From IMG/VR virus record IMGVR_UViG_2698536443_000012: 15,321 bases of DNA. One strand, written 5' to 3'. This DNA is from a virus (lineage: Duplodnaviria > Heunggongvirae > Uroviricota > Caudoviricetes). Positions 1,488-15,180 of this stretch are shown in pieces (positions within the stretch are counted from its first letter, which is position 1; each line of letters opens with the position of its first letter). The notes under the pieces were generated by a model, which made no database searches, was not told where the DNA came from, and worked only from the letters and a program-made list of their open reading frames with translations. The position numbers and the translations under genes are program-made.

Positions 1488-1545
1488 AAAAAGGGCGGCA
1501 GAGCAGTCACGGAGTAAAACTGATACCGCCAAACGTCACCAGAAA
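1488..1545 (-). ncRNA. dicF: DicF small RNA (ftsZ-targeting antisense sRNA)
   Basis: Reverse complement of 1488-1545 reads TTTCTGGTGACGTTTGGCGGTATCAGTTTTACTCCGTGACTGCTCTGCCGCCCTTTTT, which matches the DicF sequence as I recall it and ends in a GC stem plus U-run. Exact processed ends cannot be set from sequence. Confidence 0.7.
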
Positions 1546-3374: not shown

Positions 3375-3782
3375 TTATTTATTTGCGCTTCTTTTGCGAG
3401 CTTTGAGTAGTTCTTCAAAAAGTTTGTTGAAATTCTCAACTCGAGCACGCATCTCTGACAACAGAGCCTTTTGCTCTGACTCAGGCAGTGCGTCGAACAG
3501 TTGAAGCAACTCTTTTTGATCTTCTGTCAGATTGACTGGCTGATTATCTGGGATCGGTTCGCCTGGTTGCTTATCTTCATCTCCAAAAAGAAGCCAAGTC
3601 GGCGAGCACTGAAGCGCCTGGCTCAGTGCGAATAATCTCTTCCCCGCTGGCTGTGTTTCATCTCTTTCCCATTGAGAAATTGTTACGTGAGCCACTTTGA
3701 CCAGCTTACCTAATGCGGCCTGAGACAGTTTTAATTTTTTTCGCCTGTATAAGAGGCGAGCACCGAAGGTTTCGTTTTTCAT
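3375..3782 (-). CDS. dicA: Prophage repressor DicA (XRE-family HTH, cI-like)
   Basis: 135-aa ORF with HTH motif LSQAALGKLVKVAHVTISQWERDETQP and C-terminal ...ALPESEQ...EMRARVENFNKLFEELLKAR closely resembling E. coli DicA as I recall it. Divergent from dicC. Confidence 0.85.
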   Translation of the reverse strand: MKNETFGARLLYRRKKLKLSQAALGKLVKVAHVTISQWERDETQPAGKRLFALSQALQCSPTWLLFGDEDKQPGEPIPDNQPVNLTEDQKELLQLFDALPESEQKALLSEMRARVENFNKLFEELLKARKRSANK

Positions 3783-3850
3783 ATTAGGTAATTCTAATTT
3801 TTCTTGGCTTAGGTTTCTCTACGATCTAGTTTCCTTAGGAAAATCTAAGG
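3783..3850. promoter_or_regulatory. dicA-dicC intergenic operator/promoter region (three TTAGG-type sites)
   Basis: ATTAGGTAATTCTAAT (3783-3798), GCTTAGGTTTCTCTACG (about 3808-3825) and CCTTAGGAAAATCTAAGG (3833-3850). All share TTAGG/CTAA inverted half-sites and lie between divergent repressor and cro-like genes. Confidence 0.55.
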
Positions 3851-3858
3851 GGTTCGAT

Positions 3859-4086
3859 ATGTTGAAAATTGATGCTATAGCGTTTTTTGGCAGCAAAACA
3901 AAGCTTGCCAATGTCGCAGGAGTTAGGCTGGCAAGCGTTGCTGCATGGGGGGAACTGGTTCCTGAAGGTCGCGCGATGCGCCTGCAAGAGGCATCCGGCG
4001 GGGAACTTCAGTACGACCCCAAAGTTTATGACGAATATCGTAAGGCAAAGCGGGCGGGGCGGTTGAACAATGAAAATCACCACTGA
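3859..4086 (+). CDS. dicC: Cro-like regulator DicC
   Basis: 75-aa ORF MLKIDAIAFFGSKTKLANVAGVRLASVAAW...GRAMRLQEASGGELQYDPKVY, matching my memory of DicC. Divergent from dicA at the head of the rightward operon. Confidence 0.8.
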   Translation: MLKIDAIAFFGSKTKLANVAGVRLASVAAWGELVPEGRAMRLQEASGGELQYDPKVYDEYRKAKRAGRLNNENHH

Positions 4087-4621
4087 ACAGGTTTGTGAGG
4101 CTCTGGATACCTGGGTATGCCGACCAGGAATGACACAGGAGCAGGCGACGATATTAATCACGGAAGCATTCTGGGCTCTGAAAGAACGCCCGAACATCGA
4201 TGTTCAACGCGTCACGTTTAATGATGGCGAGGTTGATCAACGGGCGCTGGGCGTTAACCGGGTGAAGATATTCGAACGCTGGAAAGCTATCGACACCAGA
4301 GATAAGCGTGACAAATTCACGGCGCTGATTCCGGCAATTATGGAGGCTATCCGGATCAGCGATTTCAGATTGTATTGTGAAATTACTGACGGAAAAAGCA
4401 TTACGTACATGATCGCCGGGTTAAACAAAGAATATGGCGATGTGGTGGAGTCCGGGCTGCTTTTTGCGGATCCAGTTGTTGTGGAACGTGAGACTGACGA
4501 GCTTATAGAAAAAGCTATTGCTTTCAAGCACGCGTATCGTCAGCAATACCAATATTACTTTGCAGATAAACAAATGTCTGCCAGGGGTTCGTATGAGTAT
4601 CGATGCACTACGATGGGCTAA
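4070..4621 (+). CDS. YdaT-like (CII-like) regulatory protein
   Basis: 183-aa ORF overlapping the dicC 3' end by 17 nt. Segment TALIPAIMEAIRISDFRL resembles the YdaT family motif (KLIPAILAILPRELRHRL in Rac YdaT, from memory). Sits in the cII position. Confidence 0.55.
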   Translation: MKITTEQVCEALDTWVCRPGMTQEQATILITEAFWALKERPNIDVQRVTFNDGEVDQRALGVNRVKIFERWKAIDTRDKRDKFTALIPAIMEAIRISDFRLYCEITDGKSITYMIAGLNKEYGDVVESGLLFADPVVVERETDELIEKAIAFKHAYRQQYQYYFADKQMSARGSYEYRCTTMG

Positions 4622-5633
4622 AAAGGTGAAAACCGGCAGTTCATCCAGTAAGTCAGTATTGACCTGGCTTGCTGATATGTGCGGTGCCGATTTGTGTGCA
4701 TACCCGTCTGTATCTGCACTGGCAGAAGTAACGGAACTGAACAAAAAGACTGTGCAGGACAGCTTACGACACCTGATGGAGATTGGGTTAATTGTTGATA
4801 CCGGTGAGAGAAAAGGCAGAACAAAGCAAATTGTGGTGTACCGACTTATCGGTGTAGAAGAAAGTGTTGCCGAGCCTGAATACACCCAAAAACGGGAGTC
4901 TTTAAAGGTGGGTAAAATTGGTGCTGTTAATAAAAACAGTACCGAAAATGGTTATGTTTCAGCACAAAACAGACCCAAAAACAGAACTCTTAGCTGCATG
5001 GAAAATAACCAAAGACACCCAAATTTTCCATCAAAGACACCCAAAAACGGATCACGGAACCCAAAGGAACCCAAAGATCTAAACCCCACACATAACGCAC
5101 GCGAGAGTGCTCCGACCAGTGAGCAGGAAGTTTTGTCGTTACAGGCAGCCCCCCCTGTATTCCTGTATGGCCTGAGCGAACCCATCGGAAAATTCCCGAT
5201 GAGCGATAGCTGGTATCCGTCACGGGATTTTCGACGACGGGCTGCGTTGTGGGGGATGGCTTTGCCGGAGACAGAATTTACACCTGCTGAACTTGCCGCC
5301 TTCCGGGACTACTGGGCAGCGGAGGGGAAAGTGTTTACGCAGATTCAGTGGGAGCAGAAATTCGCCCGTCACGTAAATCACGTCAGGGCGCAGGTTAAAC
5401 CAGTCAGCAAAGGGGTAAACCATGCAGCAGCACCAGGTGGCACCGCATCACGGGCAGTTCAGGAAATTCGGGCAGCACGTGAGCAGTGGGAACGTGAAAA
5501 CGGATTTATCAGCGACGGAAACGGCCTGGAAGCTGTGGGAACTCATGGGGGTGGTTTATTCGAACCGCTGGATCCAGAAGAACGGGGCCGCACCTTCGAA
5601 GCTCTGGATTGCACAGATTGGCGCGATGACTGA
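4593..5633 (+). CDS. Phage replication initiator, lambda O-like (N-terminal winged helix)
   Basis: ATG at 4593 with AGGGG RBS. N-terminus SIDALRWAKK...SVSALAEVTELNKKTVQDSLRHLMEIGLIV is a winged-helix DNA-binding region typical of phage replisome organisers. Iteron-like repeats lie inside the coding region. Followed by a P-like gene. Confidence 0.65.
   Translation: MSIDALRWAKKVKTGSSSSKSVLTWLADMCGADLCAYPSVSALAEVTELNKKTVQDSLRHLMEIGLIVDTGERKGRTKQIVVYRLIGVEESVAEPEYTQKRESLKVGKIGAVNKNSTENGYVSAQNRPKNRTLSCMENNQRHPNFPSKTPKNGSRNPKEPKDLNPTHNARESAPTSEQEVLSLQAAPPVFLYGLSEPIGKFPMSDSWYPSRDFRRRAALWGMALPETEFTPAELAAFRDYWAAEGKVFTQIQWEQKFARHVNHVRAQVKPVSKGVNHAAAPGGTASRAVQEIRAAREQWERENGFISDGNGLEAVGTHGGGLFEPLDPEERGRTFEALDCTDWRDD
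4881..5076. repeat. Iteron-like direct repeats (putative origin) inside the O-like gene
   Basis: Repeated ACCCAAA(AAC) cores: ACACCCAAAAACGG at 4883, AGACCCAAAAACAG at 4971, AGACACCCAAA at 5013 and 5035, and tandem GGAACCCAAA at 5057 and 5067. Confidence 0.5.
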
Positions 5634-6087
5634 GCAGCAAATCCGGCAGGTCTGCCGCCAGTGCATGGACCGCTGCCGGGCGGGTGAAACATGGCCTCCG
5701 GACCTGGCTGAGTTTGTGGCACTGATTTCGAAAAGCGGAGCCAATCCATTCGGTCTGACGGTGGATGCTGTGATGGAGGAGTACCGCCGCTGGCGCAATG
5801 AGTCCTGGCGATACGACGGAAGTGATAAGTACCCGTGGTCTCAGCCTGTGCTGTATCACATTTGCCTCGAGATGCGTTCAAAGGGGATTGAGCGCCAGAT
5901 GACCGAAGGGGAATTAAAACGGCTTGCAGAACGGCAACTGACGAAATGGGCAAAGCATGTTAGTAACGGCCTGAGCGTTCCGCCAGTCCGGCGACAACTG
6001 GCGGCCCCCAAACGCCCGTCGGGGCCAACGCCAATTGAGTTGCTGAAACAGGAATATGAACGCCGGAAAGCGGCTGGTTTTGTTTGA
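5422..6087 (+). CDS. Replication protein P-like (helicase loader); start uncertain
   Basis: C-terminal two-thirds resemble lambda P (motifs TWPPDLAEFVAL and YPWSQPV versus lambda FLPSPGQFVAW and YPWKSNAHY, from memory). ATG 5422 has an AAGGGG RBS but overlaps the O-like gene by 212 nt out of frame; alternative starts are 5545 and 5626. Confidence 0.6.
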   Translation: MQQHQVAPHHGQFRKFGQHVSSGNVKTDLSATETAWKLWELMGVVYSNRWIQKNGAAPSKLWIAQIGAMTEQQIRQVCRQCMDRCRAGETWPPDLAEFVALISKSGANPFGLTVDAVMEEYRRWRNESWRYDGSDKYPWSQPVLYHICLEMRSKGIERQMTEGELKRLAERQLTKWAKHVSNGLSVPPVRRQLAAPKRPSGPTPIELLKQEYERRKAAGFV

Positions 6088-6120
6088 GTTGAGAAGTGAT
6101 TTTTTACCGGGAGGAAATTT

Positions 6121-6855
6121 ATGGAGACTGTTTTTGACGCACTGAAAGCGATGGGAAAAGCCACGTCGGTAGAGCTGGCTGCGCGACTTGATATCAGTCG
6201 TGAAGAAGTACTGAACGAGCTGTGGGAACTGAAAAAGGCTGGCTTCGTTGATAAAAGCGTATACACCTGGCGTGTGGCTGATAACAACGTTCAGCAGGAA
6301 CAGCCAGCGCCAGAAGAAACCACCACGGCAACAGAAGCGAAAATCTCAGAGTGCGATTTAACCGCGACGATTGAACAACGCGGACCACAAACGGCGGATG
6401 AACTGGCTACGCTGTTCGGTACAACATCCCGCAAAGTTGCTTCAACGCTGGCAATGGCAATCAGCAAAGGTCGTCTGATTCGCGTAAACCAGAACGGTAA
6501 AATTCGTTACTGCATACCAGGTGATAATTTACCAGCAGAGCCGAAAGTTGAATCGGTAGCGGAAACCGATGGTAAAGCCTTTCCTCAGCCAGCCGGTGTT
6601 GCGTTACCGGTACAGAAAGATGCAACACAGGAAGATATTAAAACAGAAACTGTGGCGGACATTGTGCAGTCGCTGCCATCGTTTACTGCAACGCGAGAAG
6701 ATGATTTGATTTTGCCATCGCTGCATATGGCAAATCGCGAACTGCGTAGGGCGAAGAATCATGTCCAGAAGTGGGAGCGAGTCTGCGCCGCGCTGCGGGA
6801 GCTGAACAAGCACCGGGATATGGTTGCCGGGATTTGTCGGAAGTCCGGGCAATGA
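6121..6855 (+). CDS. Hypothetical phage protein (244 aa), N-terminal winged-helix-like region
   Basis: Strong RBS GGGAGGAA 6 nt upstream of the ATG. N-terminus [38 protein letters not shown] looks like a winged-helix fold. No confident family assignment. Confidence 0.55.
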
Positions 6856-7522
6856 GCGGATGGTGCAGGCCTGAAATCATGATACTAACAATGAAGGTAA
6901 AATGCATCGGCAGTCTGATTGGTCGTAGTGAGGCGGCGGTCAGGATGAAAGCCCAGGTTAAGGGAATAAGCCTGATTCTGCGGGGTGATTTTCACCAGTC
7001 AACAAAATATCCGTAGCGCGATAACGGTCAAAAATTATGGCGCTGACACTTTTGTGCCACTGGAGATGACTGTACCTAAGTTCAGGGGAGAAGAACACGT
7101 CCGGTGGGATGGTCGGGCCAGATTTAAAGGGCAGGTCATGGCTCCAGCCTGTACGCTGGCAATGGAGGCTGCCTGGCGGGAAATTGATATGGGAACCACG
7201 CCACTCAGGGATTTACTGCCGGTCCAGAGAATAAATTCCTGTTACGGTTACACCACTGTGATCTTGCAAGTGCAGGAAAGTAGGTCTACACGGTAACGCG
7301 AGTGCGTGTAACTTTTGATGTCATTCCCGTAGAAACACCGGACAAATTTTCGCTGACAGGTCATGCAGAAGGTATAAATCTGCAGATTATGGACAATTAC
7401 GGATATCCGGCAAGAGCCGGAAAAAGCATGCCGCCTCTAATTCTCAGTGGAAGATGGACTTGATTATACTCATTGCATTGTCAGAAATAGTTATCCATTA
7501 AAGGCTGGCTATTCCAAACAGG

Positions 7523-7550
7523 ATGTTGATTACAAAAATGTAATCAACAT
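7523..7550. promoter_or_regulatory. Perfect 12-4-12 palindrome upstream of the binding-protein moron
   Basis: ATGTTGATTACA-AAAA-TGTAATCAACAT in an AT-rich intergenic region about 165 bp upstream of the ATG at 7715. A TATAAT hexamer lies at 7577-7582. Confidence 0.4.
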
Positions 7551-7714
7551 GTAAGGTTTATACTCTTCAATATGCGTATAATTTTCCTTATTTTGTTGAC
7601 TTTAAATAACAAGCTATGCACGAGGTAAAGTCGGATAAGTTTATCTGGATGTAATATATATTATTTGTAGTGTTTATAACTTTATTTCATGATAACCAAT
7701 AAAAGGAGTTTTTT

Positions 7715-8473
7715 ATGAGGAACATAATGGCAGGTTTTTTAATATTCCTGTCTTCTGCTGCTTATGCTGATATCAATCTGTATGGTCCTGGTGGCCCGCA
7801 TACAGCCTTGCTTGATGCAGCCAAACTTTATGCCGAAAAAACAGGTATTATAGTGAACGTTCATTACGGCCCACAGAACAAATGGAATGAAGATGCCAAA
7901 AAAAATGCAGATATCTTGTTTGGCGCATCAGAACAATCTGCTCTGGCTATCATTCGGGACCATAAAGACAGCTTCAGTGAAAAAGATATTCAGCCTCTTT
8001 ATCTGCGAAAAAGTATTTTACTGGTAAAGAAAGGTAATCCTAAAAATATCCGGAGTATTGACGACCTGACCAGACCTGGGATTGGCGTAATTGTTAATGA
8101 TGGTGGTGGTACCAGTAATACATCAGGCACTGGCGTCTGGGAAGATATTGCCGGACGTAAAGGGAATATAGAAACTGTCGCCGCAATCCGAAAAAATATT
8201 ATTTTATATGCGCCCAATAGCGGAACTGCACGTAAGGCTCTTGAGAATCAGCCTGGAGCAGATGTCTGGATAACCTGGGCTGACTGGGCAGCCAGTAATC
8301 CAGAAATTGGTGATGTCGTGGAAATAGCGCCAGACTACGTGATATGGCGTGATATGAACATTACAGTACGTCAGGATGCAAATGATGAAACCCGTCGATT
8401 TGCAGAATGGCTACAAACCGATGAAGCGGCGCCTGCATTCAAAAAATATGGCTGGACCAGGAAAGGCACTTGA
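7715..8473 (+). CDS. Secreted/periplasmic solute-binding protein, ModA-like (type 2 periplasmic binding fold), orphan
   Basis: AAGGAG RBS 6 nt upstream. N-terminal signal peptide MRNIMAGFLIFLSSAAYA then DINLY. C-terminal ...RRFAEWLQTDEAAPAFKKYGWT resembles the ModA C-terminus (...FYDYLKGPQAAEIFKRYGFT, from memory). AT-rich gene with no adjacent permease or ATPase genes. Confidence 0.7.
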   Translation: MRNIMAGFLIFLSSAAYADINLYGPGGPHTALLDAAKLYAEKTGIIVNVHYGPQNKWNEDAKKNADILFGASEQSALAIIRDHKDSFSEKDIQPLYLRKSILLVKKGNPKNIRSIDDLTRPGIGVIVNDGGGTSNTSGTGVWEDIAGRKGNIETVAAIRKNIILYAPNSGTARKALENQPGADVWITWADWAASNPEIGDVVEIAPDYVIWRDMNITVRQDANDETRRFAEWLQTDEAAPAFKKYGWTRKGT

Positions 8474-8505: not shown

Positions 8506-8808
8506 CCGGATGCCGCGCCAGCGGCATGTAGGGGCAGCTCACAAAACGGAAAAAATTGTACGCTAAGCCTCGCCAGGTGAACTGAATTCATTCCGATATG
8601 GGAATTCCCATATCGGGCGAAAACGGTTTGCTGTAACGGCAGAGTTAAGTAGGATTGCTGCGGGTGCTTGAGGCTATCTGCCTCGGGCATGAACACCAAC
8701 GGCAGATAGATAAAAGCCCCACCCGACTATAAATCGAAGTGAGGCCCCTATATGCTCGTCACATATAGATTGCCTCTTACGGACCGAAAGGTCAAGGAGA
8801 AGCAGGCT

Positions 8809-8964
8809 ATGAAGCAGCAAAAGGCGATGTTAATCGCCCTGATCGTCATCTGTTTAACCGTCATAGTGACGGCACTGGTAACGAGGAAAGACCTCTGCGA
8901 GGTACGAATCCGAACCGGCCAGACGGAGGTCGCTGTCTTCACAGCTTACGAACCTGAGGAGTAA
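8809..8964 (+). CDS. hokD: Hok-family membrane toxin (HokD/RelF-like), with in-frame upstream mok extension from 8752
   Basis: 51-aa ORF MKQQKAMLIALIVICLTVIVTALVTRKDLCEVRIRTGQTEVAVFTAYEPEE, the Hok family signature. The in-frame extension MLVTYRLPLTDRKVKEKQA with GAGG RBS fits a mok reading frame. Confidence 0.85.
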   Translation: MKQQKAMLIALIVICLTVIVTALVTRKDLCEVRIRTGQTEVAVFTAYEPEE

Positions 8965-12094: not shown

Positions 12095-12170
12095 GGCCCT
12101 TTAGCTCAGTGGTGAGAGCGAGCGACTCATAATCGCCAGGTCGCTGGTTCAAATCCAGCAAGGGCCACCA
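12095..12170 (+). tRNA. ileZ: tRNA-Ile2 (anticodon CAU, lysidine type), ileZ-like
   Basis: Hand-folded cloverleaf: acceptor GGCCCTT/AAGGGCC, D-arm GCTC...GAGC, anticodon loop CTCATAA, T-loop TTCAAAT, encoded CCA. Close to E. coli ileX as I recall it. Confidence 0.85.
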
Positions 12171-12260: not shown

Positions 12261-12334
12261 GCGTTGTTAGCTCAGCAGGACAGAGCAATTGCCTTCTAAG
12301 CAATCGGTCACTGGTTCGACTCCAGTACAACGCG
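12261..12334 (+). tRNA. tRNA-Arg (anticodon UCU), argO-like
   Basis: Acceptor GCGTTGT/ACAACGC, D-arm GCTC...GAGC, anticodon stem ATTGC/GCAAT with loop CTTCTAA, T-arm ACTGG-TTCGACT-CCAGT. No encoded CCA (CTA follows). Confidence 0.8.
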
Positions 12335-13868: not shown

Positions 13869-13943
13869 GGGTCAGTCGTATAAAGGTCATTACGGAAGGC
13901 TGTTAACCTTCTTATCGTGGTTCGAGTCCACGCTGTCCCGCCA
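13869..13943 (+). tRNA. tRNA-Asn-like (anticodon GUU)
   Basis: Acceptor GGGTCAG/CTGTCCC (one T-T mismatch), anticodon stem GAAGG/CCTTC with loop CTGTTAA, T-arm CGTGG-TTCGAGT-CCACG, encoded CCA. D-arm is weak (3 bp). Confidence 0.55.
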
Positions 13944-13948
13944 AACAT

Positions 13949-14024
13949 GCTGGTTTAGCTCCAATGGTAGAGCAACTGACTTGTAATCATCAGGTCGCCA
14001 GTTCGATTCCGGTAGCCGGCACCA
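13949..14024 (+). tRNA. tRNA-Thr-like (anticodon UGU), thrU-like with weakened anticodon stem
   Basis: Near-identical to E. coli thrU as I recall it, except the 3' anticodon-stem strand (TCATC instead of TCAGT) leaves only 3 canonical base pairs. Anticodon loop CTTGTAA, T-loop TTCGATT, encoded CCA. Confidence 0.55.
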
Positions 14025-14027
14025 TAT

Positions 14028-14102
14028 GCGGGTACCGTATAATGGCTATTACCTCAGCCTTCCAGGCTGATGATGCGGGTTCGATTCCCGCTACCCGCTC
14101 CA
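14028..14102 (+). tRNA. tRNA-Gly (anticodon UCC), glyT-like
   Basis: Sequence GCGGGTACCGTATAATGGCTATTACCTCAGCCTTCCAGGCTGATGATGCGGGTTCGATTCCCGCTACCCGCTCCA differs from E. coli glyT (from memory) at only a few positions. Perfect acceptor stem, encoded CCA. Confidence 0.8.
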
Positions 14103-14866: not shown

Positions 14867-15180
14867 TTTTTTTGTTTGCTGTTTATTAAAAACACTTCTG
14901 CATGGTGAATCCCCCTGTGCGGAGGGGCGATCAGCAACCAGGTATATGGGATAATCGCGGATTCAGGTGCTGATACTGAATTCACCGGGAGGCACCCGGC
15001 ACCATGCTTTGCCACAAAAGTGTTGTTTCTGTTTTTCTCAAACTATCATCATTATCCCTTTATTTCCGGCTGCGCATGGCGTGGCCTTTTTTTTACGACC
15101 AGCCACTGGCAGATGGCCATCCTGTAATTTGATTCCGGTTCCGGCTTTTTAACTCTGTTCCTGTACACGGGAGAAATTCG

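Follow-up and report, generated by a model that had tools for sequence, protein, structure and literature searches.

A lambdoid replication module in an Escherichia coli O157:H7 prophage: a probable iteron origin within the initiator gene and a long out-of-frame overlap with the helicase loader gene

We have analysed a 15,321-nucleotide (nt) stretch of DNA (IMG/VR virus record IMGVR_UViG_2698536443_000012; Caudoviricetes), referred to here as the window. Positions 4593 to 6087 include two genes, both on the plus strand: an O-like gene for a replication initiator of 346 amino acids (aa) (4593-5633, with the ATG at 4593 and the stop codon at 5631-5633) and a P-like gene for a helicase loader, most likely of 221 aa (5422-6087, stop codon at 6085-6087). 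A cluster of short direct repeats (4881-5076) lies within the initiator gene, and the two genes overlap out of frame over 212 nt (5422-5633). Database nucleotide comparison identifies the region as the replication module of a Rac-like lambdoid prophage from E. coli O157:H7. Positions 4593-6087 are 100% identical to a prophage in O157:H7 chromosomes (for example, ATCC 43894 and Xuzhou21), and over 4400-6300 the identity to the 'PPompW' prophages, whose records accompany those of Stx2a phages, is 99.8%. The gene order (dicA-like repressor, cro-like gene, YdaT-like gene, initiator, loader and DUF1627 gene) is that of the early-right operon of a Rac-like lambdoid prophage. Taken as a whole, the evidence makes it likely that this is a lambdoid module with an iteron origin in the initiator gene, a full-length 221-aa loader starting at 5422 and a 212-nt overlap between the two genes.

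From its N-terminus onward, the initiator consists of a winged-helix domain, a linker that is disordered, a DnaT-like domain, a short C-terminal helix and a disordered acidic tail. In the AlphaFold2 (AF2) model the helices and strands of the winged helix occupy aa 3-85, aa 89-194 are disordered with a predicted local distance difference test (pLDDT) score of about 30, and the DnaT-like domain spans aa 195-266. The corresponding coding regions are 4593-4856 for the N-terminal domain (aa 1-88), which would confer origin specificity, and 5175-5393 for the DnaT-like domain (aa 195-267). In RefSeq the product of 4593-5633 is labelled 'DnaT-like ssDNA-binding domain-containing protein'. The Pfam DnaT C-terminal domain (PF17948) matches aa 201-267 with 61 bits (cut-off 25) and PDB entry 6aep (primosomal protein 1, DnaT C-terminal domain) matches with E=1.7e-19. 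The NCBIfam DnaT model scores 93 bits, which is under its equivalog cut-off of 201 bits, and the protein is therefore regarded as a relative of DnaT by domain and not as DnaT itself. It also matches the PHROG family phrog_1032, 'replication initiation protein' (8.8e-91), and the PHROG families called 'replication initiation O-like' match the N-terminal domain (aa 1-92, 1e-8 to 1e-12). The other Pfam matches (HTH_36, RP-C and HVO_A0114) are weak, and a Pfam scan of the 346-aa protein gave no match to the lambda O family. On these comparisons the initiator is not a member of that family: it is O-like in role and winged-helix plus DnaT-like by make-up.

The loader is more closely tied to lambda. 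Pfam Phage_lambda_P (PF06992) matches it with 61.2 bits (cut-off 26), aligning aa 60-188 with profile positions 32-161, and phrog_109, 'P-like helicase loader', matches aa 19-220 (1.3e-61). In the AF2 model of the 221-aa protein, aa 1-26 are disordered and are followed by helices at aa 29-46, 48-54 and 60-67 with a pLDDT of about 88. The top Foldseek matches of this model are the lambda P chains of 9oa1, a structure of DnaB in complex with lambda P. For the full-length lambda P chain 9oa1_Z there are 219 aligned columns at a probability of 1.00. The template modelling score (TM-score) of 0.47-0.48 is low, which reflects domain arrangement. Residue 86 of the loader is aligned to residue 94 of lambda P. 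The protein is a lambda-P-type helicase loader, predicted from this homology to bind and load DnaB.

The heptamer ACCCAAA occurs eight times in the window and six of these copies fall within 4884-5075, all on the plus strand, at 4884, 4973, 5017, 5039, 5059 and 5069. The full repeat unit is about 15 bp long, with the consensus ACCCAAAAACGGGAC. Full 11-mers (CCCAAAAACGG, with no or one mismatch) are found at 4885, 4974 and 5040, giving an array of three full, one degenerate (4941) and three short copies (5017, 5059 and 5069). The first full copy (4884-4898, ACCCAAAAACGGGAG) begins at gene nt 292 and is read T-Q-K-R-E, in a reading phase unlike that of the others. The degenerate copy (4941-4951, ACCGAAAATGG) has three core mismatches and is weak alone, and it aligns with the ACCGAAAACGG copies of three related loci (L008, L009 and L016). 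The second full copy (4973-4987, ACCCAAAAACAGAAC) lies 66 nt upstream of the third (5039-5053, ACCCAAAAACGGATC), which is read P-K-N-G and is the best conserved copy in orthologues. The short copies are at 5017-5023 (within CAAAGACACCCAAA) and, as a pair 10 nt apart, at 5059-5075, where they form the right edge of the array. Together the repeats encode initiator aa 97-161 and so fall within the linker between the N-terminal DNA-binding and C-terminal domains.

This clustering is not explained by base composition. In whole-window shuffles the mean number of ACCCAAA copies was 2.67, and none of 200 reached eight. We also carried out 10,000 first-order Markov simulations using the A/C-rich composition of 4850-5100. 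These gave a mean of 0.30 copies and a maximum of four, so that the six observed within 192 nt were never reached; any 7-mer at all attained six copies in only eight of the 10,000. A looser search of the whole window with the 12-mer ACCCAAAAACGG, allowing up to three mismatches, gave 17 occurrences against 16 expected, that is, no enrichment, and this motif is informative only at zero or one mismatch.

Orthologous initiators with the same N-terminal domain were compared from six other loci belonging to five genera (two Enterobacter, Scandinavium, Kluyvera, Klebsiella and Salmonella). They keep copies of CCNAAAACGG at matching gene positions and in two reading phases. The copy at gene nt 292 is present in all but one of the seven orthologous genes, a strong copy ends the array in all six other loci, and extra copies occur at 26-33-nt steps. 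In four loci (L009, L020, L016 and L044) a distance of 66 nt separates the last two of the listed copies, as it does the copies at 4974 and 5040 in the window. When 20 copies are compared, core positions 2-4, 8, 11 and 12 are invariant. Between copies the encoded residues differ (P or T, K or E), but hardly any change is seen at the synonymous third positions (AAA not AAG, AAC not AAT, CCC/ACC). Copy 1 is read TQKRE and the others mostly PKNG: one DNA sequence is thus used in two reading phases, and the repeat is therefore a DNA element and not a peptide repeat.

At the equivalent gene position, initiators whose N-terminal domains are unrelated have repeats of their own, likewise unrelated. 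One such type has eight copies of GTAGTGCACCAG at a spacing of about 23 nt, and others have six copies of ATGTCACGAC or seven of CGTCACG. A preliminary description of this DNA had seen in the clustered ACCCAAA repeats an origin lying, as in lambda, inside the initiator gene. The clustering holds up against the simulations, and the conservation of the repeats in related initiator genes favours the iteron interpretation. The parallel with lambda is good for the position of the repeats, in the linker between the DNA-binding and C-terminal domains, but does not extend to the protein, which falls outside the lambda O family. From the sequence comparisons, the array at 4881-5076 is probably an iteron origin with a lambda-like layout. 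A possible DnaA box in the conserved sequence adjoining the array was also considered and set aside, since neither CACACATAA nor its complement fits TTATNCACA by eye.

The repeats and the N-terminal domain appear to move together. In megablast comparisons, similarity to relatives sets in at query positions 475-488, equivalent to 5067-5080 of the window. From about this point onward the relatives are 86-93% identical, yet they have unrelated N-terminal domains and repeats. The transition (5067-5093, AAAGATCTAAACCCCACACATAA, encoding KDLNPTH) comes right after the last repeat, and a motif (L)NP(T/S)(H/L) or TPH recurs there in nearly all initiator types, suggestive of a recombination junction that separates two modules. 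On one side of it, the N-terminal domain and repeats are exchanged among relatives as one module. On the other, the initiator tail (…ASRAVQQIRAAREQWE…EPLD.EER…) is joined to several unrelated initiator bodies, and the P type described here follows in each such locus. YdaU of the K-12 Rac prophage shares its N-terminal module with Rac-SA53, but the gene after it encodes a DnaC-like loader; the tail of YdaU ends …VNTVSLPDSAIPPGFRG, is of the DnaT type (…PDS.IPPGFRG) and aligns with the C-terminus of E. coli DnaT. These exchanges of tail and body indicate that the iterons accompany the N-terminal domain, and that the loader accompanies the C-terminal part with its tail. This agrees with classical lambda, where the O N-terminus sets origin specificity and the O C-terminus sets specificity for P.

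The start of the loader is annotated in several ways. RefSeq places it at 5626 (153 aa, with an 8-nt overlap) and GenBank LC567818 at 5665 (140 aa). Forms of about 180 aa (177-181 aa), with a start equivalent to 5545, are found in NCBI from many genera, where forms of 221-223 aa are also present, and in Klebsiella and Salmonella the loader predicted by gene callers has 223 aa and overlaps by 215 nt. In the window the P frame, +1 relative to O, is open from 5419 and its first ATG is at 5422; the predicted product from this start begins MQQHQVAPHHGQFRK. The preliminary description had listed 5422, 5545 and 5626 as candidate starts, with an overlap of 212 nt for the first. The open reading frame (ORF) coordinates bear this out and add a further ATG at 5665, and its suggestion that P proteins be compared leads to the longest of these forms, that whose model matches lambda P over its full length.

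A motif that is strongly conserved in homologues from many Enterobacterales, AW.LWE.MGEIYSNRW..KNG..PS.LWIAQIG, is encoded by 5524-5625. It is upstream of 5626 and spans 5545. In tblastn searches, the most distant genera match from query residues 30-38 onward. An ATG stands 69-108 nt before the motif in each of the 33 loci that have an initiator frame upstream, and in several of them it is the sole ATG, GTG or TTG upstream of the motif. In nearly all loci this ATG is preceded by a G-rich stretch resembling a Shine-Dalgarno (SD) sequence, in many cases GGAGGT. In the window the SD is AAGGGG (5410-5415, within the O-like gene). Its predicted duplex with the anti-SD (-8.0 kcal/mol) is the best of the candidate P starts, compared with -4.2 at 5545 and -3.1 at 5626. 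The O codon that supplies the 'AT' of the P start is always NAT and encodes H, N, D or Y, so that it is the ATG which is conserved and not the O residue. An alignment of 16 loci was used to follow codon-phase variability: up to about 5500, the region of the DnaT-like domain included, variability is highest at the O-frame third position, and from about 5500-5525 it is highest at the P-frame third, as in the region coding for P only. Openness of the P frame was also considered as support for a long P, but was dropped as weak after a synonymous-reshuffle test (described below). As frame openness is uninformative, the 5422 start rests on the conserved ATG and SD and on the lack of alternative starts. 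On this sequence evidence the loader most likely starts at the ATG at 5422, and not at 5545, 5626 or 5665.

Two Erwinia loci contain stand-alone P-like genes beside host genes and with no initiator upstream. These start 78 and 30 nt upstream of the motif. In one (L031, 3492-4118) the upstream ORF is of 297 aa and TtcA-like by eye, and the initiator-equivalent frame, open to +107, resembles a recent remnant. In the other (L039, 3471-4040) the upstream ORF encodes a 532-aa membrane protein, by eye like a phosphotransferase system (PTS) transporter; no trace of an initiator remains and the equivalent frame has stops at +32, +68 and +71.

The overlap itself (5422-5633, with P in the +1 frame relative to O) is a conserved feature. 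An overlap of roughly 170-220 nt is found in 33 loci from 16 named genera. In these the O frame ends 70-142 nt beyond the P motif and is open through the P-constrained part in every case. If the synonymous codons of P are reshuffled, the O frame stays open in about 23% of trials per locus, and further downstream the O-equivalent frame has 0.03-0.10 stops per codon. The 'free' codon position is only slightly less variable in the overlap than outside it (0.42 vs 0.53 and 0.40 vs 0.50), each half of the overlap showing mainly the signature of one frame. In the AF2 models, order and disorder are complementary, the disordered end of each protein overlying a structured element of the other. A short initiator helix (aa 287-302, RAVQEIRAAREQWERE, 5451-5498), which we propose as a loader-contact element, is encoded by the same DNA as part of the disordered P leader (aa 1-26), and the O-frame codon-phase signature is strongest at 5440-5469. 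The P helices at aa 29-67, which include the conserved motif (5506-5625), share their DNA with the disordered O tail (aa 306-346, pLDDT 32-40). Selection appears to act on the O frame in the first half of the overlap, for the helix, and on the P frame in the second half, for the helices at aa 29-67. RNA structure at the P start (5380-5470) is no better than in shuffles (z +0.87), and there is no sign there of structure-based translational coupling.

A number of observations weigh against this interpretation of the module. Only three repeats are full length, the remaining four being short or degenerate. A search for an adjacent AT-rich element, as proposed in the preliminary description, gave a weak signal only: the least stable 40-mers of the module, at 4900-4959, have a z of about +1.6 to +1.8 relative to the window and lie between iteron copies. 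This softest DNA of the module is not among the most AT-rich stretches of the window, the GC content to the right of the array is about 55%, and no clear or convincing AT-rich unwinding element adjoins the repeats. For the loader, many relatives have GGAGGT, a stronger SD than the AAGGGG of the window. When the codons of O are reshuffled synonymously, the P frame across 5422-5523 stays open in 97% of cases in the window (median 0.71 across loci). An extra internal start is also possible at 5545, where the Met is conserved and where the NCBI forms of 180 aa from many genera begin. For the overlap, the loci share descent and the per-locus openness probabilities are not to be multiplied freely. 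Since the loci are not independent, the evidence that the initiator extension is maintained is good but not conclusive. In the second half, the conservation seen in the O tail is also confounded with the constraint on P.

Three other explanations need to be weighed with these points in mind. The repeats could be a low-complexity P-K-N-G peptide repeat in a disordered linker, having no role as DNA. The region does encode a disordered linker rich in Asn, Lys and Pro, in which most copies translate as PKNG or TENG, but a peptide repeat accounts neither for copy 1, with the same DNA sequence in the other phase (TQKRE) and at the same gene position in orthologues, nor for synonymous third positions that are almost fixed among copies whose amino acids differ. 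It would also leave unexplained the unrelated repeats that occupy the same place in unrelated initiator types and change with the N-terminal domain, and we regard it as very improbable. Similarly, the overlap could reflect a programmed +1 ribosomal frameshift producing an initiator-loader fusion. Near the internal SD neither a slippery site nor a stop-codon shift site was apparent, and conserved SD and ATG signals favour independent initiation, as do P genes that exist without an upstream O gene. What might point to a fusion, apart from the +1 frame of P, is the PHROG family phrog_15931 (482 positions), whose matches cover the initiator's C-terminal half (aa 161-345) as well as the loader (aa 4-221), and a 385-aa database protein, P0107, in which a DnaT-like domain is read straight into P. 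Both are probably fused or mis-assembled entries: P0107 has a second frame change at its 3' end and is probably an assembly error. A frameshift is in our opinion extremely unlikely.

Most of the remaining doubt concerns a shorter loader, translated from 5626 (ATGACTGA, with an 8-nt overlap and termination-reinitiation coupling) or from 5545, the openness of the upstream frame being then a by-product of the initiator sequence. The reshuffling result (0.97 in the window) is what would be expected in this case, the RefSeq start is at 5626 here and in relatives, the 177-181-aa forms in many genera correspond to 5545, where the Met is kept in nearly all homologues, and the first 26 residues of the long form are poorly conserved and predicted to be disordered. 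Against this, a start at 5626 loses three conserved and confidently predicted helices (aa 29-67) and one at 5545 cuts the first of them; the P-frame codon signature is already present upstream of both; and both have weak SD duplexes compared with that at 5422. An ATG lies upstream of the motif in every locus, nearly always with an SD, while the overlying O residue cycles through four NAT-encoded amino acids. The orphan P genes begin upstream of the motif, and only the 221-aa form gives the match to full-length lambda P. We consider a shorter product unlikely and retain the 221-aa loader.

With a 221-aa loader and an iteron origin, replication would most probably proceed as follows. The initiator would bind the phased A-tract repeats in its own gene through its N-terminal winged-helix domain. 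P would be translated independently, from the SD at 5410-5415 and the ATG at 5422 within the O-like gene. The C-terminal O helix would serve as the loader-contact element and travel with the P gene as one recombination module. Iteron-bound initiator would then recruit the P-DnaB complex via the P N-terminal domain, as lambda O recruits lambda P, and P would hand DnaB over to DNA opened within or close to the array. It is conceivable, although we hold it only as a tentative idea, that the reciprocal overlap of about 200 nt is itself a selected device, which places the loader-contact helix and the loader N-terminal domain, the presumed halves of one interface, on the same DNA.

The module can be compared with several known systems. 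Like lambda O, ori-lambda and P, it has an initiator followed by a helicase loader, direct repeats in the initiator linker, an N-terminal domain and repeats that form one specificity module, a C-terminal part that goes with the loader, and a loader which belongs to Pfam Phage_lambda_P and whose model matches lambda P over its full length. It differs in its initiator, which has no lambda O family match and a DnaT-like C-terminal domain; in its repeats, which are A-tract units of about 15 bp whereas the lambda iterons are palindromic 19-mers; in lacking an evident AT-rich block of about 40 bp next to the repeats; and in its overlap of 212 nt, where lambda O and P overlap by a few bases only. The same two-protein architecture is found in DopC, which combines HTH_36 with a DnaT C-terminal motif, and its P-like partner DopE (Brezellec et al. 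2017, PMC5509034). These are described as domesticated genes of the chromosome, and no iteron-like sequences were found by the authors at the dopC locus; the pair described here is in a prophage and carries repeats. Gene overlap is not mentioned in that article (PMC5509034).

A further comparison is with Rac prophages (K-12 Rac and Rac-SA53), with which the module shares a dicA/racR-like repressor, ydaS/ydaT-like genes, initiator, loader and a ydaW/DUF1627 gene. The initiator C-terminal half and P gene are 93% identical to those of Rac-SA53. The Rac initiators differ in having a DUF1376 N-terminal domain and other repeats, and K-12 Rac also in its DnaC-like loader (YdaV), its DnaT-type tail and the absence of overlap, ydaU ending 6 nt before ydaV. 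The Rac origin oriJ has been reported to be active (PMC3945230). In ydaU of K-12 (L043, 1972-2063) we noted repeats of the AGATGTTCAA type, three of them at 33-nt spacing, at the equivalent linker position; these are candidate iterons of oriJ. Lastly, the overlap resembles overprinted gene pairs of phages and other viruses in that two long frames are open across many taxa, with one constraint per region and disorder in the other product. Products of overlapping genes are often disordered. Here, unlike in such pairs, the extension is reciprocal and the products are presumed binding partners.

Other features of the region and the window were recorded. The 3' end of the YdaT-like gene (4070-4621) overlaps the initiator start by 29 nt (4593-4621), again out of frame, the second such overlap in the operon. 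ORFs on the minus strand (for example, 4421-4885 and 5543-5953) were set aside because the two plus-strand frames account for the whole conservation signal. An Rfam scan of the window gave no RNA family within 4593-6087, and a promoter and terminator scan of 3700-6300 gave no promoter-like site and nothing beyond expectation, the sole plus-strand terminator-like hairpin being at 6062-6078, at the end of P. Elsewhere in the window Rfam identifies DicF (1493-1544, minus strand, 76.7 bits), a sok antitoxin RNA beside a hok/gef-type gene (8662-8811, plus strand, 103.9 bits) and the small RNA STnc100 (14871-15043, plus strand, 104.7 bits). Two groups of plus-strand tRNA genes, five genes in all, are present downstream of the Q-like antiterminator region (12095-12167 and 12261-12334; 13869-13940, 13949-14021 and 14028-14099). 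The least stable and most AT-rich DNA of the window is at 7430-7700 (85% AT at 7651-7690), just upstream of the paa adhesin gene (7715-8473), and the two together look like a foreign insertion in the prophage.

An origin within the initiator gene and mosaic exchange are textbook lambda, and a DnaT-like initiator with a P-like partner is also known already. What appears to be new is the conserved reciprocal overlap of about 200 nt and the resulting mis-annotation of the loader. Our literature search found no description of a reciprocal overlap in an initiator/loader pair, of the origin of this initiator type or of truncation of the loader by reference annotation. The loader is currently annotated with at least four starts (giving 140, 153, about 180 and 221 aa) in a prophage family that is present in over a thousand complete E. 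coli genomes and also across many Enterobacterales. Reference annotation drops its conserved N-terminal domain, and expression or modelling based on RefSeq would deal with a truncated loader. The iteron consensus, together with changes that are silent in one frame, makes both the origin and the overlap directly testable.

The lambda paradigm is not overturned by these results. The module provides a clean natural case of a three-part mosaic, with an origin-specificity module, a junction and a loader-specificity module, in which partner proteins share coding DNA and their ordered and disordered segments complement each other. If the overlap does prove to be a selected device, mosaic recombination among lambdoid phages would be unable to separate the matched partners, and ribosomes translating the initiator would cross the loader start and so hold down the ratio of loader to initiator.

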